Under the pieces are notes generated by a model that was not told the DNA's origin, did not search any database, and saw only the letters and a program-made list of their open reading frames with translations. The translations under genes and the position numbers were made by a program. 17,673 nucleotides of DNA, from contig JBBSVU010000021.1 of assembly GCA_038046645.1 (NCBI GenBank), positions 1 through 17,673 on the forward strand, written 5' to 3'. Origin of the DNA: an archaeon (GTDB lineage Archaea; Iainarchaeota; Iainarchaeia; Iainarchaeales; 0-14-0-20-34-12). Shown here piece after piece: positions 460 through 11,308 of the stretch; within the stretch, counting starts at the first letter, position 1, and every line of letters starts with the position of its first letter.

Positions 460-517
460 GCAGTTTAAGGTTTGCTATAACTTTAATAGTTTCCACAAAG
501 CATGAATTTTATTTTTA

Positions 518-1249
518 TTATTCTAGATATACCTTGAACAGAATAAGCAGTATTAGCCCAAATAAGAAACTTAAAAATACTGCAGTTGATTTTTTTAATG
601 ACACTTCCTTGTGCAACTCAGGAATTAAATCCGAAGCTGCAATGTAAATAAAGCCGCCGGCAGCAAATGGCAATAATATATTTGAAAATTCTATTGCAAA
701 GAAGAATCCGACTAAGCCTCCAAGAATGCAGGTCATCTGTGATAACAGGCTAAACAATAATGCCTTTGTTTTTGTAAAGCCGCCATATACCAATGTCGCA
801 AAATTCCCTAATTCTTGTGGTATCTCATGTGAAATAATTGCTATTGTGGTTATGATTCCAGTTGGAACCCCTGCAATAAATCCGGCAGCTATAACCAAAC
901 CATCAATAAAGTTATGAATTCCATCCCCAATTAATATCAAATAGGTAAATTCATGCGTTTCACATTTGCCATTATGGCAATGATGCCAGTGCAAAAACCT
1001 TTCAATAAAGAAAAATAGGCAAAATCCAATTAACAAATAAACAAAAACTTCAAATGCCGGCATTTCTTCAAGGGATTCAAGCAACAGATGGAAGAATGCC
1101 GCGCCAATTAAAGCGCCGGCAGAGAAAGCAACAAGGAATAATAATATTTTCTGGAATTTTTTGTCATTCATCCATAAGGTGAATATCCCAACAAGCGCTA
1201 GCAAGCTGTCAATTATTGTTGCAAGTAATATATACAGCAGGGTATCCAT
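518..1249 (-). CDS. ZIP family (ZupT-like) divalent metal/zinc transporter
   Basis: 243 aa, multi-pass hydrophobic. Has a His-rich loop HWHHCH, TM4 motif GDGIHNFIDG, TM5 motif HEIPQELG and the C-terminal AAGGFIYIAASDLIPEL typical of ZIP transporters. Confidence 0.95.
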   Translation of the reverse strand: MDTLLYILLATIIDSLLALVGIFTLWMNDKKFQKILLFLVAFSAGALIGAAFFHLLLESLEEMPAFEVFVYLLIGFCLFFFIERFLHWHHCHNGKCETHEFTYLILIGDGIHNFIDGLVIAAGFIAGVPTGIITTIAIISHEIPQELGNFATLVYGGFTKTKALLFSLLSQMTCILGGLVGFFFAIEFSNILLPFAAGGFIYIAASDLIPELHKEVSLKKSTAVFLSFLFGLILLILFKVYLE

Positions 1250-1276
1250 AAAAATCCAAAAAATTATTTATTATAA

Positions 1277-3691
1277 TTACATCTTCATTGTGGATGTCAT
1301 TAAATGGTAATATGGAGGGTGTGTTTTATACCTTTTTATTGCATTTTTAATTATCAGTTCCAAGAAATCCTTGTATTTGAATCCGACAGTTTCTGCACAA
1401 GCCGGGACACAATCACCAATATTAATTGAAGGATTCGGATTTAATTCGAGAACATAAGGATTGTTGTCCTTGTCAGTCCTTATCTCTACCCTGCCATAAT
1501 CATGGCAATCAAGTATATTGTAAGTATCTATGGCCATTTCAGTTATTAGGGCAGTCAATCTTTTAGGAATGTTTGCAGGCCTTTCAGTTCTGATTTTATT
1601 ATATACTGATTTTTTTAATCCCCATTTCGCATCATATGGATAAATATGCCAATAACCCTCAGGCATATCCTCAAACATTGACCTTGATAAAGGCAATACC
1701 TTCAAATCATCTTCATTTCCGACGATGGTAATGTCATACTCATCCCCTTCAATATATTCTTCAATCAGTGCAGGCCTTCCAATCTCGCAAATTACCTTTT
1801 CAAGCTGCCCGTATAATTCTTTTTTATCCTGGACAACAGAATCATTCGTAATCCCTATTGAATTATCAGTGTTTGCAGGCTTTACAATTAAAGGATATTC
1901 CAAATCCTGGTCGATTGAATCTTCCATGGTAAAAACATAATCCCATTTTGGTGTCGGTATTTTATTTAAGGAAAGCAATTCCTTTACCCTTATCTTGTCA
2001 ATGCACAAGGAAAGCGTGTGCGGATTAGAGCCAGTGTATGGAATCTGCAGCATGTCCAAAAGAGCGGCTGAATGCGGCTCAAGCAAGCTTGAATTATTTA
2101 TCCGTTCACATACATTGAACATTACATCCACTTTTGCAGTAACTATATCATCTACTATATCTGGGAATTTGTTCATATCAAAGAACGTTACTTTATACCC
2201 AGTTTTTTCCAAAGTTTTCTGGATATTTTTCCCAACACTTGTCAAATCTTTTTCAACAGGATTATCGCTGTCCCCTTCATAATCATTGCATAACACCCCG
2301 ATGTGCAATTTCAAAAGGTCTTCAGCCCTAAACAGCCTAATCTTCTCAATCTTTTGCTGCCCTAAAATATTATTTCTTAAAACATGCGCAGATGAAAATT
2401 TATCCTTCCTCCTGCTTTGCCCAATGCTTGAATAAGGGGCAAATTCAATTACAAGGTAATCAAATTTCATCAAAGCTTCCATCAAAATAGTTTCAGATTC
2501 TTCTTCTGTCTTTCCCTTTGTAACTACCCAGCCTAATGTTTCAAATCCTTCTGGCGGAACCAAGATAGCTTCACCAACATTTTGGAATATCTTTAGTTCA
2601 TAAACGCCTGGCATTTCAGTGATCTCTTTTATTCCTTGGATCCCTGAAACAATCCCAGAACTTTGGGGTATGATATATTTCCCGGCCATGTAACACCTTG
2701 GCTTTGTAGCTTTCTTTGCAGTAATCTTTTTCCCCAATGCAATTAGCACTGATTGCTCAACCAAATCAACGTTCCAAACATTCCTTACCCAATCCCAAAG
2801 ATAATCCCCGCCCATTCTTGCAGCGATTTCAATTACCACAGGCTTATTATCCACAAGCTTTACTTCAGTATGTGTAATGCCATTCCTTAGCCCTATCGCC
2901 CTTATTGCTTTGCATACCTCTTTCTCAACCCTTTCCCTTGTCTTAGTATCTAAGCGAGTAGGCATTACATCACCAGTTTCCATAAAATAAGGCGCTTTCA
3001 TTCTCATTTTGTCTGAAATGGCAATTACCCTTGGAATGCCTTGCTGCACAAGCGTTTCAATGGCATATTCTGACCCGCTTAAATATTCCTCAAGAATAAA
3101 TTGTGAATTATTGTAATTGAAAATAGGGTTAAATTTCGGGGTGGCATTCCTTACAACATATTCATAAGTATTGACTGCGTCTTCTTTTTCTTCAATCTTA
3201 ATTACGAATTCGCTGTCTGCACCCCAGCAAGGCTTTATCACTGCCGGAAATTTAATCTTATCCATCACCCTTTCCAAATCCTGCCTGCTTGAGATAAGGA
3301 AAAATTTAGGTGTGTTCATATTTTTCTTTTTGAAAGCAGCCCTCATCTCAAATTTATTCCTTGCTTTCAGCGCAGTATCTATGCTTGGGCCGACAAAATC
3401 AAATTTCTCGCAGATTTTTGCAAGAAGAGGCACATCATCCTCCCAAAAAGTTATTGCGCCGTCAATTGAATGCCTTTTCATGAACCCATCAAGCTTATCC
3501 AGGCATTCCTGGTGGTTGTATGTGTTTGCTTTTATGAAATAGTCAGCATATTTTTTCTGCCAGCTTAAGCTAGAATTTAATAATACTATCTTTAAGCCGA
3601 GCTTTTTTGCGGCCTTTAATGTAAATTCCTTTTTTTCTGAACCGGAACCTACAAATAAAATTGTGTACCCTTCCAATTTGTTATCAGTCAT
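1277..3691 (-). CDS. Tandem double ATP-grasp amide ligase: N-terminal carnosine-synthase/L-amino-acid-ligase-like module plus C-terminal D-Ala-D-Ala-ligase-like module
   Basis: 804 aa, one uninterrupted frame. Module 1 (aa ~1-415): NKFEMR, FPAVIKP, ILEEYLSGSE, HTEVKL, EIAARMGG and a LAL-type C-terminal subdomain. Module 2 (aa ~462-790): FNVCE, IPYTGS, DKIRVK, YPLIVKP..SIGI, LIEEYIEG, YDAKW, YGRVE, LELNPNP. Confidence 0.9.
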   Translation of the reverse strand: MTDNKLEGYTILFVGSGSEKKEFTLKAAKKLGLKIVLLNSSLSWQKKYADYFIKANTYNHQECLDKLDGFMKRHSIDGAITFWEDDVPLLAKICEKFDFVGPSIDTALKARNKFEMRAAFKKKNMNTPKFFLISSRQDLERVMDKIKFPAVIKPCWGADSEFVIKIEEKEDAVNTYEYVVRNATPKFNPIFNYNNSQFILEEYLSGSEYAIETLVQQGIPRVIAISDKMRMKAPYFMETGDVMPTRLDTKTRERVEKEVCKAIRAIGLRNGITHTEVKLVDNKPVVIEIAARMGGDYLWDWVRNVWNVDLVEQSVLIALGKKITAKKATKPRCYMAGKYIIPQSSGIVSGIQGIKEITEMPGVYELKIFQNVGEAILVPPEGFETLGWVVTKGKTEEESETILMEALMKFDYLVIEFAPYSSIGQSRRKDKFSSAHVLRNNILGQQKIEKIRLFRAEDLLKLHIGVLCNDYEGDSDNPVEKDLTSVGKNIQKTLEKTGYKVTFFDMNKFPDIVDDIVTAKVDVMFNVCERINNSSLLEPHSAALLDMLQIPYTGSNPHTLSLCIDKIRVKELLSLNKIPTPKWDYVFTMEDSIDQDLEYPLIVKPANTDNSIGITNDSVVQDKKELYGQLEKVICEIGRPALIEEYIEGDEYDITIVGNEDDLKVLPLSRSMFEDMPEGYWHIYPYDAKWGLKKSVYNKIRTERPANIPKRLTALITEMAIDTYNILDCHDYGRVEIRTDKDNNPYVLELNPNPSINIGDCVPACAETVGFKYKDFLELIIKNAIKRYKTHPPYYHLMTSTMKM

Positions 3692-4035
3692 AATTTTTCT
3701 TTTTTCAAAATGAGTGCCGGAGTTTTGAAATTATTTTGTTTTGCTTAAATTATTCCAGATTATTTATCCAAAATTATTTTTTTAGTTTATTTTTATTTTA
3801 TATTTTTTTAATTATACTATTATTTAATGCAATAAACTATTTAAATGTTGATATAAAAAATGCAAAATCCAGGAAAATTTCGGCAAAAAAATAATTTTTT
3901 CCTTGAAAATTTAATTTTTGCACCAGAAAAAAATCTTTTATTCCTTTTTTGCCAATTGTTTTTGATAATATCCAAAATTTTACTGCATTTTGCCAAAAGC
4001 CAATATTTATAAAACAAATATCGCTTATCCTTACT

Positions 4036-4425
4036 ATGCCTGCAATTGATGCATATTTGTTTAACAAGAAAGGGGAGAAGAAAATCCTTCGTGTAATCCT
4101 TGATGAGGATGACGCAATCCTTACCTGCATAAAAAGGGCAATGAAGGAAAACAATGTTGAGGACTGCAAGGTTGAAAATGCAGAAGGATTTGTCAAGGAA
4201 GCAACAGTAAATTACATGGAAGGCTCTACTTACAAGTCAAAGGTTTTCAAGGATACTAAGGTATTTATGGCTTCAGGGCATTTTAAATTAAATTTTGATG
4301 AACTATTCGGTGTTTTGCACATGAGTTTAGGGGATAAAAGGCCAGTAACAACAACCTTTGTAAAAGGCACAGCAAAGCAAGGCCTTGAAATTAAACTTTC
4401 CTATGTTTTTATCCCAACAAATTAA
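4036..4425 (+). CDS. PPC/DUF296-like domain protein (divergent)
   Basis: 129 aa from ATG 4036; the listed TTG at 3949 lies in AT-rich intergenic-like DNA. LRVILDEDDAILTCIKRAMKENNV, EGFVKEATVNY and LHMSLGD follow the PPC/DUF296 pattern. Confidence 0.65.
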   Translation: MPAIDAYLFNKKGEKKILRVILDEDDAILTCIKRAMKENNVEDCKVENAEGFVKEATVNYMEGSTYKSKVFKDTKVFMASGHFKLNFDELFGVLHMSLGDKRPVTTTFVKGTAKQGLEIKLSYVFIPTN

Positions 4426-4490
4426 AAAATAACTAATTAGTTTCTAATTTTTTAAACATTCAAATTTATTTTATTTACCTAATTTGGATT

Positions 4491-6449
4491 CTATCCAGCT
4501 CCGCCACCGCCTCCTCCTCCACCCCCTCCGCCACCGCCTCCAAATCCACCAGACCCTGATGTTGCGGTTGCGGATGAGAATGCAGAGCTGAATGATTGGG
4601 TAATGCTTCCAATATTCATACTTGACATGCTTGCGTATGTGCCAATAAATATTGAGGAGTGATATGGTCCAGAATAATCCTTGAAAACAATATCCATTGA
4701 TTTCTGCACTTCTTCAGCTATCCCTAAAGGTATGGAATACACCAAATATTTTTCCCATAATGGCAGATATTCAGGAGAAACATTCTTCAGGTTGCTGAAA
4801 TCCTTGAGGAATTTCTTCAGGTTCATCCATTTAGCATAATGTATTGCTCCCTCCTTTGTCCTATTAGGCAAAGCATTTGGGAAAATGAATAAAGGCAGGA
4901 TTGCCAATGATACTGAAAGCAAGATCATTGCGAAGCCTATTATGGCTGCGGTTATTACCAAAATTGCTGAACCTATCAAGTAGGGTAAATAGCCAGACAT
5001 CTTTGAGAAGAATCCCCTTTTTTCTGCATCCAAACTGGCAGTTTTCATCCAATCTTTCAAGAATGCTTGGGATTCAATCCTATGGTGCATTAAATATTCC
5101 TCTAACTCACTCAATAACAGTTCATTCGGTGTTTCATCCTTTTTCTTTTGCTTGAATATTTTCCCTTCATAGCCATATTCTGCAGCTTGGCATATAAATG
5201 CAAGCAATTTTTTCTCACTTTCCGGTAGTTTGCTTTTATCTTTGCTTTTAATCAGTATTTTGAAATCATCTTTTGAAAGAAATCCTTTTTTTGGGATTCT
5301 CTCCAGCTTGAGGTTTCCTTTCAGGCACATATTAAGTATTTCAGCAACAATCGTATCGCTTTTTGGGTTTTTATTTTCCTGATTTATCAATGCGCTTACA
5401 GTAGCAGGGCTGTAATCATAAGGAATTTCCCTTTCATATATCGCATCATATTCAATTTTAGGCTCCCTTCCGAACAAATGCCAACAGATAGCAAATAAGG
5501 CAATCTGAAGTAGGCTTAGTATTGTCACAATTAAAGGATTAATTTCCATTACCGCAACAATAATGACCATTAAAAGGAAAAAGCCCAAGCATATGGAAAC
5601 CCATATCTTTACTGCTTTTTGCAAAAGCTTCGGTTTTTTAGTGCTAACAAATAGAATGCTTAGTATAATCAGAAGCCAAATCGAAGGAAGCAGCAGGAAT
5701 ACTGCGAATAAACCCAATAAACCTTGCAAACTGTTAACAAATTCATCAGCCTTTGCAAAATTCTTCTCTTCTTCGATTATTTTCTGCAACCCATTTTCAT
5801 TCTTCACAATTGCATTTTCTTTTGATGAAAGCATTGTTGCGGGGAAAGCAGTTCTTATTTCAACCCATTGTTCTTTTGGAATGTTAAATGCCTGAAATAA
5901 AATCTTTTTGCCCTCAATCATCCCAATTTTTCCATTTAATTTGGGATGGCCCCACACATAGATATCCTTCGGATTTTCTATATCTGAAGGCAATTCAATA
6001 AAGCCAGTGAGTTCAGATAATTTCGCAGCCCAGCTGTCTCCCCATACTTTCCAGTTTAATTCAGCTACATCATTGTAAGCAGTAATTGCATTTTTTAGTT
6101 TGTAAGTTATTTCAAATGTTCTTTCCTCATCCTCTGCCGAATAATACCAGGTTATTTTTGTTTTGTCAAACAAATCTTCTATTTTTGCCTGAAGTGGATT
6201 TCCATTCTCTTCAACCTTTAAATCACTTAAATCCCAATACCCCTTTGGTATCTCCCTATATGCATAGCTATAACTTCCATGGAAATCAAAGTTTATCTTT
6301 TCTGTCACATAAACTGTTGCATCTTCCTGAATTTGCATTTCCACTTCAGCTTTGCTTAAAGTATAATATTTTTTTGCAGAAACATTTGGCAGAAAAACAA
6401 GCAGCAGGATAAAAACCAGCGCCAACAAGCCCAAAAATCTTTTTTGCAT
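4491..6449 (-). CDS. DUF2207 family membrane protein
   Basis: 652 aa from ATG 6449. Signal-peptide-like N-terminus, extracellular beta domain (VTEKINFDF, ELNWKVWG, WVEIR), TM segments, LKKFLKDFS..WEKYLVYSIPLG and the Gly-rich tail GGFGGGGGGGGGGGGGGAG. Confidence 0.9.
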   Translation of the reverse strand: MQKRFLGLLALVFILLLVFLPNVSAKKYYTLSKAEVEMQIQEDATVYVTEKINFDFHGSYSYAYREIPKGYWDLSDLKVEENGNPLQAKIEDLFDKTKITWYYSAEDEERTFEITYKLKNAITAYNDVAELNWKVWGDSWAAKLSELTGFIELPSDIENPKDIYVWGHPKLNGKIGMIEGKKILFQAFNIPKEQWVEIRTAFPATMLSSKENAIVKNENGLQKIIEEEKNFAKADEFVNSLQGLLGLFAVFLLLPSIWLLIILSILFVSTKKPKLLQKAVKIWVSICLGFFLLMVIIVAVMEINPLIVTILSLLQIALFAICWHLFGREPKIEYDAIYEREIPYDYSPATVSALINQENKNPKSDTIVAEILNMCLKGNLKLERIPKKGFLSKDDFKILIKSKDKSKLPESEKKLLAFICQAAEYGYEGKIFKQKKKDETPNELLLSELEEYLMHHRIESQAFLKDWMKTASLDAEKRGFFSKMSGYLPYLIGSAILVITAAIIGFAMILLSVSLAILPLFIFPNALPNRTKEGAIHYAKWMNLKKFLKDFSNLKNVSPEYLPLWEKYLVYSIPLGIAEEVQKSMDIVFKDYSGPYHSSIFIGTYASMSSMNIGSITQSFSSAFSSATATSGSGGFGGGGGGGGGGGGGGAG

Positions 6450-6514
6450 ACTTTTTTTATGTTTAAACCTATTTATATTATTTGTTTTTGGCAATTCTTC
6501 ATTTTTGGAAAAAA

Positions 6515-6559
6515 CAAAAATAAAAACAATTTTTGGCAAAGGCAAAAATAAAAACAATT
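6515..6559. repeat. 17-bp exact direct repeat CAAAAATAAAAACAATT in a divergent intergenic region
   Basis: Copies at 6515-6531 and 6543-6559, between the divergent DUF2207 and antiporter starts. Low complexity. Confidence 0.5.
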
Positions 6560-6591
6560 GATTTTTATTCTAGTTACCCGTAAATTATAAT

Positions 6592-7536
6592 ATGGTCCTG
6601 TTAGATATTGTAATTTTTATCTTGGCAATGGCAGTCCTTTTATTCAGCTCAAAGAAGGTAATTGATGCCTGCATAAAAATATCTGAATATTCAGGCATTT
6701 CCCATTTAGCCATTGGCTTTATTGTTATTGCAATAGCTGTTTCCCTGCCTGATTTTATGGTTTCCTTTATTGCTACCCTAAATAATAAGCCTGCTTTAGC
6801 AATCGGTGATGCTTTAGGCTCAAGCATTGCCAACATTTGCCTAGTTTTAGGGATAGTGACAATGATAAGGCATGTTTCGGTTGAAAGAAAACACACTTTG
6901 GAAAGTGCAGAATTGCTTTTGTTAATCAGTTTAGTGCCTGCGATTATCCTTTCAAGAGGGATTGTTGGGGCATTTGAAGGAACAATCCTTTTGATAATCT
7001 TTGTACTTTATGCCTTTTTCACAATTAAGGAAAGATTTGATTTGCATATTAAAGATGGAGTAACAAAAAAAGAATGGCATCATTCAGCAGGGATTCTTTT
7101 TGCCGGCTTATTGCTTGTAATCGCAAGCTCACATTTTGTTGTTTTAACTGCTTCAAATATTGCCCGTTTTTTAGGAATTCCAGAAGCAGTAATAGGCTTA
7201 ACCTTAGTTTCCTTCGGCACTACCTTGCCTGAATTAGTTATAGATTTCACAGCTATACGCTTCGGCCATTATGCTTTAGCTATTGGGGATATTTTAGGAA
7301 GCACAGTTGTAAACCTTACTTTAATTTTAGGAATGACTCTTACACTTTCGCCCACCATGGTTGACCTAAGTGTTTATACTATTCCTTTAGCCTTTGTAAT
7401 AATTGCAAATTCCTATTTGTTTTACAGTCTGGTAAAGCATGAAGGCATCGGTTACAGGCAAGGAGTGATATTCATTTTGATGTATGTTTCCTTTATCTTT
7501 GCAATGATACTCACAAAAGGGCTTTATGCTGCTTAA
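6592..7536 (+). CDS. Calcium/sodium antiporter (CaCA superfamily, YrbG-like)
   Basis: 314 aa, about 10 TMs. Alpha-repeats AVSLPD...AIGDALGSSIANI and GTTLPE...AIGDILGSTVVN. Confidence 0.93.
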   Translation: MVLLDIVIFILAMAVLLFSSKKVIDACIKISEYSGISHLAIGFIVIAIAVSLPDFMVSFIATLNNKPALAIGDALGSSIANICLVLGIVTMIRHVSVERKHTLESAELLLLISLVPAIILSRGIVGAFEGTILLIIFVLYAFFTIKERFDLHIKDGVTKKEWHHSAGILFAGLLLVIASSHFVVLTASNIARFLGIPEAVIGLTLVSFGTTLPELVIDFTAIRFGHYALAIGDILGSTVVNLTLILGMTLTLSPTMVDLSVYTIPLAFVIIANSYLFYSLVKHEGIGYRQGVIFILMYVSFIFAMILTKGLYAA

Positions 7537-7583
7537 CCTTGAATCGAATTGTTTATTAAGAATTCAATAGATTATTATTGTGC

Positions 7584-7655
7584 CAGTACATTGAAATTCA
7601 TCGATGAATTATTTCAGGTTTTGAAATTGATTTATTAATTTAATTCAATGCACTG
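7584..7655. promoter_or_regulatory. Putative promoter of the C/D box sRNA within nested inverted repeats
   Basis: TATA-like TTTATTAA at 7631-7638, starting 27 nt upstream of the sRNA 5' stem. Perfect 16-bp palindrome AATTCATCGATGAATT at 7595-7610. 11/12 inverted repeat CAGTACATTGAA (7584-7595) / TTCAATGCACTG (7644-7655). Confidence 0.5.
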
Positions 7656-7657
7656 TA

Positions 7658-7718
7658 GCCCGATGATGATTTAACTCAACACTGATAAAATATGAGGAGG
7701 TTAACACCTGCTGAGGGC
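7658..7718 (+). ncRNA. Archaeal C/D box 2'-O-methylation guide sRNA
   Basis: Stem GCCC 7658-7661; C box ATGATGA 7663-7669; 12-nt guide TTTAACTCAACA; D' box CTGA 7682-7685; C' box ATGAGGA 7692-7698; 12-nt guide GGTTAACACCTG; D box CTGA 7711-7714; stem GGGC 7715-7718. Box order and 12-nt spacing are canonical, and the element is intergenic. Confidence 0.88.
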
Positions 7719-7721
7719 AAA

Positions 7722-7796
7722 CGTTACATAAATGTTACAAAAATATGCCTTTTCGTTACACAAACGTAACGCTTATAAAGTTTCCTCTAAGGCATA
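7722..7796. promoter_or_regulatory. Paired operator-like sites CGTTAC-N6-GT(A/T)AC next to a TATA-like box
   Basis: CGTTACATAAATGTTACA (7722-7739) and the palindrome CGTTACACAAACGTAACG (7754-7771) are 14/18 identical. CTTATAAAG follows at 7772-7780. 8-bp IR TATGCCTT (7744-7751) / AAGGCATA (7789-7796). Confidence 0.5.
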
Positions 7797-7875
7797 ATGG
7801 TTTTACCCCTTATTTATTTACTTTTTAAAATTAAGGGGCAAGTTTAATAATCAGCCCTTCGAGGCAATAATTCTA

Positions 7876-9105
7876 TTACTCCCCATAGTCTATTCTCTTT
7901 CTGGCCTGTTTAATACTCTCAATAGTAATCTGCTTAATCAATAGGGCAAATTTCGCATCATCCCTTTTTTTCGATAATTTAGTCAATTTCATATACTGTT
8001 CAGAAAAGCCTATCGGTATTTTAACAAGCGGAAATCCATTGCTAATTAGGATTTTACTGAAAATTGCCCGTGCGGTTCTGCTATTCCCATCTATAAAAGG
8101 ATGGATACGCTGGAACTCATTATGCAAAAAAGCTGCATTATCAACCCATTGTATGGCTGATTGTTTTTTCACCTGTTGTATTTGCCTGACTTTTTCAATG
8201 AAATCATCCAAAATGGCAGGCAGCTGGTGCCAATTAGGTGTTTTAAAATCTGGATTTCCCTTAATCTTAACATTTTGCTTTCTGATTTGCCCTGCCCCAT
8301 AAGGCATAGAATTCATTGCAGTTCTGTGGAATTCCAAAATCATATCTAAATCAAGCGCCTTATTGGAATAAATGAAAAAATCCAATGCTTTCTTATAATC
8401 TAAAACCTCCTGTGCTTCCTTAAAAGGTTTATTTGTTGGGGCAATATTCTGCTTAATGAGCCTTTCAGTTTCTGGCAATGTCAGAGTGTTTCCTTCCAAA
8501 TGCAAGCTTGAATAAATAAAACCAATTTCATCAAAGGTGATTTTCTTTTTAACCAGCTTTTTATACTCAGAAAACTCCTTCTCCAGCCTCTTTTCTACAC
8601 TTTCCTTATCTAAACAATCAGCTAAGTTTTGGCAGGCAACTAATGGTTTTAGCAAGAATTGTTCGACAAGGCACTCTAAAAATCTAGAGTGAACAATTTT
8701 GCAGGCAAATGGTTTTTTGGATTCCACAATGGCAAATCCATGTTTTGTCAATAAATCAGAAATCTTCCGAACTGTTTTGTTGTCAAAAGGCATTCTTGAG
8801 ATATGCCCTTTTTCCAGCCCAAGCCTAACAAACGCGGCAGTTTTCTCCGAAACCATTCGGTTATAATCAATGTTATTACTGAAGCAAAAATTTACCAACC
8901 AAAATAGCCTATGCGCTTTTTCACTATCCCCTATGAAAAATGCCCCATTCTCTTCCCTTATTAAATTCTCGTGTTTTAATTTTTTAACCAGCTTGTAAAT
9001 AGATGCATATGCTACTGGTTTTTTGCCAATTTTCTTGACAATCTCATTGCAGGATAATCCTGGGAATAATCCTATTGCCAAAAGAACATCTAATCTAGAA
9101 ACCAT
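7876..9105 (-). CDS. Fic/DOC family protein with N-terminal winged-helix region
   Basis: 409 aa. Fic motif HPFIDGNSRTAR, inhibitory-helix motif SSLHLEGN, and an N-terminal wHTH-like segment (GLSCNEIVKKIGK..YASIYKLVKKLKHENLI). Confidence 0.93.
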   Translation of the reverse strand: MVSRLDVLLAIGLFPGLSCNEIVKKIGKKPVAYASIYKLVKKLKHENLIREENGAFFIGDSEKAHRLFWLVNFCFSNNIDYNRMVSEKTAAFVRLGLEKGHISRMPFDNKTVRKISDLLTKHGFAIVESKKPFACKIVHSRFLECLVEQFLLKPLVACQNLADCLDKESVEKRLEKEFSEYKKLVKKKITFDEIGFIYSSLHLEGNTLTLPETERLIKQNIAPTNKPFKEAQEVLDYKKALDFFIYSNKALDLDMILEFHRTAMNSMPYGAGQIRKQNVKIKGNPDFKTPNWHQLPAILDDFIEKVRQIQQVKKQSAIQWVDNAAFLHNEFQRIHPFIDGNSRTARAIFSKILISNGFPLVKIPIGFSEQYMKLTKLSKKRDDAKFALLIKQITIESIKQARKRIDYGE

Positions 9106-9125
9106 ACATTATTTATGCTCAGCAC

Positions 9126-9180
9126 TAAATAAAAACCTTACTATAACGGATTAAAAGTACATAAAAAGTATACTTTTAAT
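9126..9180 (-). promoter_or_regulatory. Putative Fic promoter with palindromic operator
   Basis: Minus-strand TTTTTATTTA at 9135-9126, 21-30 nt before the ATG at 9105. Perfect 10-bp IR ATTAAAAGTA (9150-9159) / TACTTTTAAT (9171-9180), overlapping the 14-bp palindrome AAAAGTATACTTTT (9164-9177). Confidence 0.55.
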
Positions 9181-9368
9181 ACTAAATAGCAATAGGGCTC
9201 CGTCCCCATGAAATACTCATGAGTGAAAAAGTTGGCCTAAGAAGCAAACATATTTTTGTTATTTTAACATTCATGAGACGGTTTAAACTGAATTTTAGCT
9301 AACTTTTAGCGTATTGGGTCTAAAATTGCAAAAGTTTCCTAAATAAGAAACTTTGGGGGGTAAAGTAA

Positions 9369-9415
9369 TATCGGTTTTTACTGAAAGTATCGGTTTTTAC
9401 CGATATCATTAAAAA
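9369..9415 (+). promoter_or_regulatory. Tandem palindromic operators of the TA operon
   Basis: TATCGGTTTTTACTGAAA (9369-9386) and the perfect IR TATCGGT-TTTT-ACCGATA (9388-9405) are 16/18 identical with a 19-bp period. TATA-like ATTAAAAA at 9408-9415 precedes the ATG at 9438. Confidence 0.7.
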
Positions 9416-9437
9416 CAGGTTGACATATAGTAACTGT

Positions 9438-10034
9438 ATGAAACTGACATCAAGGCAAACATATAAGATTGTAACTTATGTACTTGCAACCCCCAAGTTT
9501 ACGCAAACAAAGCTAGCTGAAAAAACAGGGGTTTCATGGGGCAGGATGAATGAGATAGTGCAATGGCTCGTAAGCAAGGGTTTTGTCGAAAAAAGAATAG
9601 GCAATTATGAACTTATTGACCCTGCCAATCTGGTTTCATTATTCCCAATTTATAGGGATATGACTTCGCTACTTCTGGAAAAGCTGCCATTAAGGCTTAC
9701 AAAAAAGCAGGTATTGGAAATGCTGCCAAAAAAGGCAGTGCTTTGCCTGGACTCTGCACTTGAATTTTATTCAGGCTACTGGAATTCAGGAAGCGTTTAT
9801 GCCTATGCTGATAATAAGCAGCTTAAGGAAATTGAAAATAAATTCAAGCCTTGGGTCGGCGGCAATACAAACCTTTTTGTATTCAAGCCAGATATGCCCC
9901 TGGAAACAAAAAAAGTAAAGGGTTTTATTGCAACAAGCAGGCTAAGGACACTTATAGATATGCTCTGTGACAAAAAGAGCCATTCTGCTAAGGATTTATA
10001 CAAGCAGTTGTGGGGTCTGAAGTTTGAAGAGTAA
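9438..10034 (+). CDS. Winged-HTH transcriptional regulator / AbiEi-like type IV antitoxin
   Basis: 198 aa from ATG 9438. HTH TQTKLAEKTGVSWGRMNEIVQWLVSKGFVEK. C-terminal VYAY...GFIATSRLRTLIDML resembles AbiEi C-terminal domains. Overlaps the downstream nucleotidyltransferase gene by 11 bp. Confidence 0.75.
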   Translation: MKLTSRQTYKIVTYVLATPKFTQTKLAEKTGVSWGRMNEIVQWLVSKGFVEKRIGNYELIDPANLVSLFPIYRDMTSLLLEKLPLRLTKKQVLEMLPKKAVLCLDSALEFYSGYWNSGSVYAYADNKQLKEIENKFKPWVGGNTNLFVFKPDMPLETKKVKGFIATSRLRTLIDMLCDKKSHSAKDLYKQLWGLKFEE

Positions 10035-10689
10035 ATATGCTGAAAATAAGCTGACTAAGGCATCATACAATGAACTTTTAAAACTTGCCTGCATCTTCAA
10101 TAGGCATGGCTTAAGCCCAATTATAATAGGCGGCTGGGCCGTTTATTTCTATACAAAGGGGGCAAAATCAATTGACATTGATATGATTCTGCCGTCAAAA
10201 TATGCGGTGAAAATCTTTGAAAAACACTGTAGGCAGTATGGCTTCATTAAAAGCAAATCAAAAATAAGGGCTTTATTTAGGAAGGAAATCAGTACTGGAA
10301 GTGGCAGAAAAGAGGAGATTCAGCTTGACATATTTACGCTGGCAGATAAAAATATTCTTGCATCAGACAATTCGATTGAAATACCCTGGAAGCTTGCTGA
10401 GATGCATAGTTTGGAATGGCCTATTGGAAATAATGCTGTTATCCGGCTTCCAGCAAAAGAAGTCCTTCTACTTTATAAAGTTGCGGCATTGATTGACAGG
10501 GAATACAAACTGAGAACTTGGGTGATGCCGATGGTAACAAAAGAAAGGTTAAGGTCAAAAATTGAAAAAGATAAGGCAGATATTTTGGGATTAATTGGCA
10601 CAGGCATTGACAAAATAGAACTAAATAAGCTTCTTAAAAAAACTGGTTTTTTGAAATATTTTGAGCTAAAGGTAGGTGAATTGAAATGA
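10024..10689 (+). CDS. Pol-beta superfamily nucleotidyltransferase, AbiEii-like type IV toxin
   Basis: 221 aa, TTG start with GGGGT RBS-like sequence upstream. Motifs IIIGGWAV, SIDID, QLDIF, LYKVAALIDR and KDKADI match the AbiEii pattern (GG, DxD, K..A..R, (R/K)D..D). Confidence 0.8.
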   Translation: MKSKYAENKLTKASYNELLKLACIFNRHGLSPIIIGGWAVYFYTKGAKSIDIDMILPSKYAVKIFEKHCRQYGFIKSKSKIRALFRKEISTGSGRKEEIQLDIFTLADKNILASDNSIEIPWKLAEMHSLEWPIGNNAVIRLPAKEVLLLYKVAALIDREYKLRTWVMPMVTKERLRSKIEKDKADILGLIGTGIDKIELNKLLKKTGFLKYFELKVGELK

Positions 10690-10919
10690 GAAAACATAAA
10701 AATACTGGGAACGAATCAACTGATTTTTGGGCAGAAGGCTTTTTTGCACAAACAATTAGTGCCAAAGACCTAAAAGAAAAAGTAAAAACTATTGATGAAA
10801 AACACAGCAAAGAATTGAAGTTTAATTGCAGAAAATGTAATGCAAAAATATCTGCCCATAACAAGGATTGGCATGATGGCATGTGCGATGGCTGCTTCAA
10901 TAAAAAATATTTTTCATAA
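10686..10919 (+). CDS. Small putative zinc-finger protein
   Basis: 77 aa. ATGA overlap with the toxin stop, RBS-like GGTAGGTGA at 10671-10679, and motif CRKC-x6-H-x4-H-x3-CDGC. Confidence 0.7.
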   Translation: MRKHKNTGNESTDFWAEGFFAQTISAKDLKEKVKTIDEKHSKELKFNCRKCNAKISAHNKDWHDGMCDGCFNKKYFS

Positions 10920-11074
10920 TAAATCTCAGCTGACCGCAATTCTTTTAACAACTTAGGGCATTATAGAAATAAAGAGGCGTAGATGGCACTATTTTTAGCT
11001 CGGGTGTTGAATCGGACAGAAAGCGCCTGCTGAGGGCGTTCTTATTTACTTTAATCCAAAATTAAGGCAAGCCG

Positions 11075-11138
11075 TTAGGCTAACAATTACTCTGCTTTTT
11101 GTTAGCCTAAAAACCAGAAATAACGAATTTAGGCTAAC
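11075..11138. repeat. Three copies of TTAGGCTAAC (+,-,+), including a perfect 12-bp inverted repeat
   Basis: TTAGGCTAACAA (11075-11086) / TTGTTAGCCTAA (11099-11110) with a 12-nt spacer. Third copy at 11129-11138. Confidence 0.75.
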
Positions 11139-11308
11139 TATTAAAATGGCAGAATTCACATTGGAAGAATATTTTAGGCAAGTGAAAGAATTTTTGAAAA
11201 AATGAGTTAAATTGATTTTCCCAGTAATTCCGCGGTGAAAACCAATTTGAGGGCTTTTCAAATACTTTTATATAGTACTATTTTCTTATTCTACTTGGTG
11301 ACCCGTAA

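Follow-up and report, generated by a model that had tools for sequence, protein, structure and literature searches.

A box C/D small RNA gene as the probable landing site of a decayed tRNA-type integrative element in a small archaeal genome

What placed a 3.3-kb islet of accessory genes between a box C/D small RNA (sRNA) gene and an exact copy of the last 12 bases of that gene? The question is posed by a 17,673-nucleotide stretch of DNA (the window) that is the whole of contig JBBSVU010000021.1 (C21) in assembly GCA_038046645.1 (G000; 1,169,422 bases in 25 contigs, 89% complete), from an archaeon of groundwater with a genome of about 1 Mb. A first-pass annotation of the window had proposed that a non-autonomous or decayed tyrosine-integrase element used the C/D sRNA gene as its chromosomal attachment site (attB), and this proposal is supported independently by a metagenome contig carrying an integrase beside the same sRNA (L096), by the habit of that integrase family of lying next to tRNA genes, and by a parallel element in a sister genome of the same genus (G001; 74% complete). 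We conclude that a tRNA-type integrative element probably took the 3′ end of the C/D sRNA gene as attB and that the islet is what it left, in decayed or cis-mobilizable form. The evidence is purely comparative, drawn from a single decayed islet, a single contig of 1.8 kb and a single parallel in a sister genome.

The repeat is exact and rare. The 12-mer CCTGCTGAGGGC stands at 7707-7718 and again at 11026-11037, both times without a mismatch and on the + strand, and the left copy ends exactly at the final base of the sRNA. As the earlier annotation had noticed, both ends of the insert carry the terminal sequence of the target RNA gene in direct orientation; the gene is complete at the left junction, and at the right one a 3′ fragment is all there is: no C, D′ or C′ box was found upstream of 11026, and Rfam gives a single C/D match in the window. 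Across the whole G000 assembly the 12-mer has two forward and no reverse copies, a reversed control word has none, and a first-order Markov model expects 0.039 copies per genome strand, so the worry that it might be a common dispersed motif found no support. None of 200 dinucleotide-preserving shuffles contained two or more matches to it, even with one mismatch allowed. Part of the window occurs in 15 public runs, and we aligned the Logan contigs of four of them (X7, X8, X10 and X11, from four studies); contigs from three further studies among these, covering 7589-7833, 7394-7743, 10687-11087 and 10864-11091 cross the junctions exactly as in the window, and because they bridge both, an assembly artefact at the junctions is ruled out.

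Judging from its sequence and conservation, the target is a real box C/D sRNA that guides rRNA methylation. Its boxes and guides (Table 1) are read from the sequence, with 7 nt between D′ and C′. Each guide pairs at 11 of 12 positions, G-U allowed, with the 23S rRNA gene of G000 about 2.6 kb into that gene, the two sites lying 29 nt apart; no perfect 12/12 rRNA complement of either guide was found in this genome outside the sRNA itself. The Rfam model sR1 aligns with the sRNA end to end, scoring 27.4 bits (E 0.0016) where the gathering threshold is 45, and because C/D families are lineage-specific, this sub-threshold score weighs little. A pattern scan for homologues, with one genome per species, returned 58 loci, mostly from Candidatus Iainarchaeum or other DPANN archaea. 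Both guides were found in a C/D arrangement in 35 of them, three with the order of the window and 32 with the order swapped; in the remaining 23 the second guide was absent or the matches were due to chance, some of them in bacterial records. Relative to the window, the D′ and D guide positions are swapped in 32 of 35 homologues, a guide RNA circularly permuted within a single phylum. In some homologues the two halves are separated by a structured insert of about 70-100 nt.

A link between this sRNA and an integrase came from a metagenome scan with the last 20 nt of the sRNA as query, which returned two contigs, L096 and L097. In L096, an sRNA homologue identical to that of the window at 57 of 61 bases is followed by GTTCTTATTT, a TATA-like box and, on the same strand, an integrase gene that starts 57 nt past the sRNA. 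The encoded protein (415 amino acids; Pfam Phage_integrase, 1.2e-23) is a tyrosine integrase with a C-terminal zinc ribbon, so that an integrase of the relevant family sits at the same target elsewhere. Comparison of L096 with window positions 11026-11047 by BLAST gave 22 nt at 100% identity, with a sharp stop at the 12-mer on the left and 10 nt further on the right, from which we take the right-hand copy in the window to have its homologue in the 3′ end of a genuine sRNA with the adjoining flank. The first-pass annotation had suggested looking for an empty site in which the sRNA runs directly into the sequence beyond the right-hand repeat: L096 does join its sRNA straight to the GTTCTTATTT flank of the window, and no junction was found to fall elsewhere, but the shared flank is only 10 nt long before L096 continues into its own integrase. 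The second contig, L097, has an intact sRNA homologue whose last 21 nt, at 233-253, recur at 399-419, 166 nt downstream; ahead of the recurrence the sequence opens with what resembles a degenerate sRNA 5′ end (GCCCTGT...). This repeat is ambiguous between an att scar, a duplicated gene and a long-form sRNA.

The relatives of the L096 integrase place it in a family that favours tRNA genes. Of 196 genomes from the order, 87 carry homologues (E<=1e-30), frequently more than one each; G000 carries none. The closest relative of the L096 integrase, L098, has a tRNA-Asn site. We searched upstream of them with our own script for T-arms and acceptor ends because ARAGORN and Rfam miss most of these tRNAs, which have long introns; the Rfam tRNA model at its gathering score places a tRNA beside the integrase in 6 of 20 loci. 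Of the 30 best loci, 23 have a T-arm with a matching acceptor end 18-119 nt before the integrase gene under the strict settings of the script. The same arrangement can be seen by eye in L103, L104, L106 and L111, which have unusual T-loops or cut-off contigs; only a fragment is present in L108, sequence upstream is missing from L118, and L120 shows nothing recognisable. Two family members of which a single contig covers both ends are bounded by 14-bp direct repeats of the tRNA 3′ end, 10.1 kb apart in one (G148:C1) and 3.6 kb apart in the other (G014:C1). The L096 geometry of RNA gene, about 57 nt and integrase fits this tRNA-targeting family, as do the 12-13-bp repeats of the islet and of the G001 element described below. 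The G014 copy (L194, G014:C1 32687-36281) is a minimal family member whose intact tRNA lies at the far end, in the orientation opposite to the integrase. The sole family integrase found in G001 (L130, on G001:C8, 1062-4202) follows a gene for a 627-amino-acid protein by 45 nt, so the ends of protein-coding genes are possible targets of the family as well.

A close parallel to the islet is found at a tRNA gene in G001. This genome is colinear with the window from 506 to 7554 and then differs. On its contig C41, an integrase-less 1.8-kb element begins directly after an intron-containing tRNA-His gene that ends at 7754; the last 13 nt of the tRNA, CTCGGCCGCGGCC, recur at 9546-9558 and close the element; G001 has two occurrences of this word and G000 has one. 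The element contains one AAA_14/DUF4143 ATPase gene and no integrase. Three non-coding blocks (a, b and c) are arranged alike in both elements, in order as well as in orientation to the repeats, and delimit two cargo slots, of which the one between a and b holds a Fic gene in the window and none in G001, and the one between b and c holds a nucleotidyltransferase operon in the window and the ATPase gene in G001. One backbone thus sits at the exact 3′ ends of two different stable-RNA genes, closed in each case by a 12-13-bp repeat. The colinearity of G000 contig C1 with G001:C41 extends to the last base of tRNA-His, after which G000 lacks the element and goes on directly to the end of a minus-strand gene; the genes downstream of tRNA-His in the two genomes are weakly alike (37% over 41 amino acids and 30% over 50). 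By this colinearity, the tRNA-His site in G000 is the empty site of the G001 element.

Two further observations concern the tRNA-His locus. The tRNA-His intron of G001 is about 80 nt long (L044, about 7600-7754) and has no counterpart in G000 (C1:74242-74316), the exons being nearly identical. A cassette of ~150 nt with three or four hairpins has one copy in the G001 element, immediately inside its right boundary (L044, 9376-9514), and at least five copies, 80-92% identical, in G000 (C22:4387-4504, C14:44307-44385, C10:49012-49090, C1:33191-33269 and C6:155587-155695).

These comparisons suggest how the islet may have arisen. A tyrosine integrase would have recombined element and chromosome inside a short core common to both, comprising at least the last 12 nt of the sRNA; recombination inside a shared core would therefore have rebuilt the sRNA intact at the left junction, and the displaced 3′ fragment would have ended up, with its native, T-rich downstream flank, at the right. 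The integrase would later have been lost with both att-type repeats kept, leaving the equivalent of a cis-mobilizable element (CIME). Movement would then be possible only with an integrase supplied by another element, for instance one of L096 type landing in the intact right-hand site. The two backbone slots carry, as cargo, a Fic protein of self-inhibited type and an operon of winged helix-turn-helix (wHTH), nucleotidyltransferase and Zn-ribbon genes that resembles AbiE and MenAT systems.

Several observations weigh against this account. No integrase was found in the islet by Pfam on all open reading frames (ORFs), and a profile of 35 family integrases run over six frames found no remnant of one (best E 1.2); the same 35-member profile found no remnant in any of the three integrase-less elements. 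In the 89%-complete G000 assembly, where the earlier annotation had advised searching for a trans-acting integrase, there is no L096-family homologue and the single PF00589 gene is Xer-like. None of the 58 species-representative loci has an integrase within 2.5 kb of its sRNA. The left junction lacks GTTCTTATTT, so that either the core is only 12 nt long or the left junction has been remodelled. The Logan contigs of the four runs, a source that drops rare variants, contain no deletion or circle joints. Beyond the 10 nt of L096 there is no clean empty site, and neither a copy of the sRNA nor the right flank is detectable in G001 or G002. Elements with the same backbone use different cores (sRNA and tRNA-His), which a single core-specific integrase hardly explains. 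Finally, the islet shows no compositional anomaly, its G+C content (0.357) being the same as that of its flanks (0.356 on the left and 0.336 on the right).

Other searches around the locus were also negative. An empty site was sought by synteny, and in G002 and G033 the flanking genes are on other contigs or 15 kb apart; a weak match in G002 falls inside a coding gene. Viral contigs gave 0 matches to an 18-nt word of the sRNA end and no integrase relative. A split, SSV-type integrase was considered because block c has an ATG GCA CT start resembling those of family integrases, but reading across the circular junction is stopped by the D-box TGA in the window and by a TAA in G001.

The islet could instead owe its place to cassette insertion independent of any integrase, through homologous or microhomology-mediated replacement beside conserved genes, the repeat being a by-product. 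The precedent is on G001:C13, where a 1.37-kb cassette without an integrase lies inside the 3′ end of a Na/Ca exchanger gene (L036, 8095-9481); it consists of a GTTAC hairpin/TATA promoter and the gene of a 397-amino-acid AAA_14/DUF4143 ATPase (PADLOC PDC-S01), is bounded by exact 18-bp repeats (TTGGTAAAGCATGAGGGC) and carries a diverged replacement for the gene end, and window positions 7430-7554 are its empty site. The occurrence of the a/b/c backbone at two different repeats points the same way, as do the left arms of the two RNA-gene elements, which begin alike (AAACGTTA and AAAAGTTA). Yet replacement of a 3′ end by an element-borne copy is the classic signature of integrase elements, and the G001 family integrase that follows a protein-coding gene makes protein-gene ends possible targets, so that even the precedent can be read in terms of an integrase. 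Both RNA-gene repeats, moreover, stop exactly where the mature RNA does, as do the 14-bp repeats of the family members that carry an integrase, and L096 carries an integrase at this very sRNA. The islet also lacks terminal inverted repeats (none among the 25 longest of 189 inverted pairs joins its ends), and none of its ORFs encodes a transposase or a Cas1-type protein; a transposon or casposon with target-site duplication was rejected on the same two grounds. We regard integrase-independent insertion as unlikely.

Alternatively, the second copy might be the relic of a tandem or nearby sRNA duplicate whose 5′ part has decayed, with accessory genes accumulating in between later. Several genomes do have more than one copy of this sRNA family, and the second sRNA end in L097 follows a degenerate sRNA-like 5′ end. 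Beside the second copy in the window, however, there are neither box remnants nor a second Rfam match; what stands there is block c, which is shared with the G001 tRNA-His element, where there is no sRNA, and is therefore element DNA and not decayed sRNA. The identity moreover ends at 12 nt leftward and runs 10 nt rightward into an L096-type flank, and we consider a decayed duplicate quite improbable. Simple coincidence in an ordinary variable region would be harder still to credit and deserves next to no weight. In its favour, the window (35% G+C) has 76 repeated 12-mers, and the coding sequence of L096 has an unrelated 12-nt chance match to 7709-7720. The Markov expectation for this word is nevertheless 5.8e-4 per window, and among 3180 direct 12-mer pairs 200-5000 nt apart genome-wide only 10, at five loci including this one, have at least 9 G+C; the match also lengthens to 22 nt against L096 and has a parallel at tRNA-His.

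If the islet is an integrase-element remnant, a wider scenario can be sketched, though we offer it as a tentative and rather doubtful one: a lineage of tRNA-targeting DPANN integrases would have been retargeted to a C/D guide RNA, and integrase-less mini-islands would be satellites moved in trans between the 3′ ends of stable-RNA genes. The last ~25 nt of the guide RNA, a quasi-palindromic guide plus 8 nt to the 3′ end, may mimic a T-arm with its acceptor end. When the sRNA end was compared with 23 targeted tRNA ends, the mean right-aligned identity was 9.37 of 25 against 7.0 ± 1.25 for shuffles; 65 of 2000 shuffles reached this mean and 225 of 2000 reached the observed maximum of 13, a weak hint of resemblance. 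The mini-islands, with a three-block backbone and two slots (Fic in one, the nucleotidyltransferase pair or an ATPase in the other), would form a small defence-gene shuttle in genomes of ~1 Mb.

Integration into tRNA, transfer-messenger RNA (tmRNA) and bacterial regulatory sRNA genes is textbook knowledge, and regulatory sRNA genes that serve as prophage sites include cyaR for P2 and cpxQ for Wphi. The bacterial sdsR/ryeB locus likewise acts as a prophage attachment site (PMC3333887). Like the islet, such prophages use the end of a small non-coding RNA gene, carry a replacement copy and leave a fragment at the far junction. They differ in that they are complete or defective phages, their RNAs are of Hfq type and their att core is a terminator hairpin, whereas the islet is 3.3 kb without an integrase and its core is the D box and terminal (kink-turn) stem of an archaeal ribonucleoprotein guide RNA. 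For archaeal integrases, a 2021 review names tRNA genes (with a preference for the 3′ end), intergenic regions and protein-coding genes among the targets, with att cores as short as the acceptor end (PMC8371274); sRNA, small nucleolar RNA (snoRNA) and non-coding RNA have 0 mentions in the main text of this review of archaeal tyrosine recombinases. As with the archaeal elements at tRNA genes, the short direct repeat of the islet is the 3′ end of a stable-RNA gene and the intact gene is rebuilt. In those elements the integrase adjoins the target gene, as it does in L096 and its relatives; the islet departs from them in its target, a box C/D methylation-guide sRNA, and in having no integrase. Our search, which left subscription journals and supplements outside its scope, found no prior report of a box C/D guide RNA gene as an attachment site.

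CIMEs, as described for the streptococcal families of integrative and conjugative (ICE) and integrative and mobilizable (IME) elements, have lost their integration and transfer genes and kept attL and attR, and an accretion model has been proposed for them (PMC5704250). With both 12-bp copies intact and no recombinase, the islet fits the definition in the form given there; CIMEs are, however, defined in bacteria with conjugative partners. The mechanism, then, is familiar. What is unfamiliar is the class of target, the group of hosts and a backbone that lacks an integrase and takes interchangeable cargo. Should our reading be correct, a wider set of stable-RNA genes would be open to integrases, and the family would offer a natural target switch from tRNA to guide RNA. 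It would also show how Fic, toxin-antitoxin-like and ATPase genes are acquired and reshuffled on kilobase islets in tiny archaeal genomes of symbiont type, and would give annotators of archaeal islands a rule, namely to check for repeats of sRNA ends besides those of tRNA ends.

Table 1 Features of the sRNA gene, the islet and its junctions (window coordinates; E-values for profile matches)
Feature	Position	Strand	Remarks
Box C/D sRNA gene	7658..7718	+	Terminal stem, C, D′, C′ and D boxes, two 12-nt guides; intact gene, left junction
sRNA terminal stem, 5′ half GCCC	7658-7661	+	Read from sequence
C box ATGATGA	7663-7669	+	Read from sequence
First 12-nt guide	7670-7681	+	Read from sequence
D′ box CTGA	7682-7685	+	Read from sequence
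C′ box TGAGGA	7693-7698	+	Read from sequence
Second 12-nt guide	7699-7710	+	Read from sequence
D box CTGA	7711-7714	+	Read from sequence
sRNA terminal stem, 3′ half GGGC	7715-7718	+	Read from sequence
Left 12-bp repeat copy (attL-type core)	7707..7718	+	Last 4 nt of D guide, D box and terminal stem
Islet body, 3307 bp	7719..11025	.	Three-block non-coding backbone (a, b, c) in common with G001:C41 element; two cargo modules
Orphan promoter/operator: GTTAC repeats, hairpin CGTTAC-N6-GTAACG, TATA-like CTTATAAAG	7722..7779	+	
Backbone block a, hairpin-forming	7791..7852	+	84% identical over 63 nt to G001:C41 7771-7831
Fic-family protein, 409 amino acids	7876..9105	-	Pfam Fic 6.4e-17, 62.6 bits against a cut-off of 24
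Backbone block b, near-palindrome AGTTTCCTAAATAAGAAACT	9320..9352	+	94% identical over 33 nt to G001:C41 7845-7877
Winged-helix protein, first gene of pair	9420..10034	+	Pfam HTH_24 4.4e-06, TrmB 2.4e-05
221-amino-acid nucleotidyltransferase-fold protein (predicted)	10024..10689	+	Overlaps wHTH stop codon; GG and DxD invariant
Zn-ribbon protein, 77 amino acids	10686..10919	+	Overlaps nucleotidyltransferase stop; weak DUF7129 match 0.0069, below cut-off
Backbone block c	10955..10992	+	92% identical over 38 nt to G001:C41 9337-9374
Right repeat copy (11026-11037) and 10 nt GTTCTTATTT (attR-type junction)	11026..11047	+	22 nt identical to L096 sRNA 3′ end and flank

The genes enclosed by the repeats are accessory only, as the first-pass annotation had it: Fic, the wHTH protein, a 221-amino-acid protein without a Pfam match and the Zn-ribbon protein. 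To the left of the islet lies the Na/Ca exchanger gene, and to its right are two small ORFs and a Na/H exchanger. The cargo is modular as well as accessory, the wHTH/nucleotidyltransferase pair recurring in six other genomes and Fic homologues in many, in differing contexts; relatives that carry the same genes at this locus without the repeat, an outcome that would have counted against the earlier annotation, were not found, and Fic and the pair are separate modules elsewhere. Among 29 loci with cargo homologues, none has an integrase nearby. The pair lies within 0.2-0.9 kb of a tRNA-Ile gene on the opposite strand in two genomes, which belong to different families (L057 547-623 and L058 356-432).

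The Fic protein also matches PADLOC PDC-S04 (2.2e-26), SoFic (1.4e-20) and, in the PDB, a FICD homologue (4.8e-18). The Fic core consensus is HxFx(D/E)GN(G/K)R, from which the HPFIDGNSR core of this protein departs once, with S for G/K; an SxxxEG motif of inhibitory type lies upstream, and the N-terminal ~180 amino acids can be read as winged-helix-like.

The three genes of the second slot form an operon in which stops and starts overlap. For the wHTH gene, whose ORF opens at TTG 9420, ATG 9438 is the likelier start because homologues begin aligning there; six other genomes keep it paired with the nucleotidyltransferase gene, at 66-79% amino-acid identity. The 221-amino-acid protein had no Pfam match at E<=1 and no PADLOC or NCBIfam match at E<=0.01. 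Its AlphaFold2 model (mean confidence, pLDDT, 83.5) has the fold of a minimal nucleotidyltransferase, and Foldseek matched it in the PDB to 5uvd (nucleotidyltransferase-like; 1.4e-07), MenT1 (8an4; 2.2e-06) and TglT/MenT3 (6j7p; 2.3e-04), with template-modelling (TM) scores of about 0.4-0.54. G36, G37, D51 and D53 are invariant across seven sequences of the protein; with its nucleotidyltransferase fold, its GG...DxD centre and a wHTH gene upstream, the protein resembles toxins of the MenT/AbiEii type.

Like AbiE and MenAT pairs, the islet pair consists of two overlapping genes, the wHTH upstream and a minimal nucleotidyltransferase with MenT1 and TglT/MenT3 matches downstream. It is unlike them in having no Pfam, PADLOC or NCBIfam toxin match and in the third, Zn-ribbon gene attached to it, and its toxin role is a prediction. 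The AbiE-like label given earlier holds for the architecture and not for family membership, because the AbiE models (AbiEi and AbiEii) were not matched and the wHTH protein matched only generic HTH families of Pfam. DNA homologous to the Zn-ribbon gene adjoins the pair in G048:C28 too.

The promoter/operator at the left end of the islet is an orphan: elsewhere an AAA_14/DUF4143 ATPase gene lies downstream of it, and in the window no ATPase follows. Its ~58 nt are 78-86% identical to sequences at 11 places (L085-L095) in 10 genomes of the order, and in at least 4 of the 11 a promoter of this type precedes an ATPase ORF of 393-395 amino acids by about 25-30 nt; the hairpin and TATA box upstream of the G001:C13 ATPase gene are similar. 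The layout, two GTTAC-N5-GTTAC/GTAAC sites and a TATA box, is conserved in a way that suggests a dedicated regulator for mobile ATPase genes.

The stem of block a shows one compensatory change between the window and G001:C41. The block can also be read as a hydrophobic mini-ORF of 16 codons, MVLPLIYLLFKIKGQV in the window (7797-7847) and MIFSLYFLFFKIKGKF in G001 (L044 7777-7848), and may hold a small hydrophobic peptide ORF besides its hairpin. Beyond the islet, the right flank (11075-11200) has three half-sites of TTAGGCTAAC type, two of them forming a hairpin, and a 19-codon ORF (11147-11206) with DNA conservation of about 79-82% in L160 and L194.

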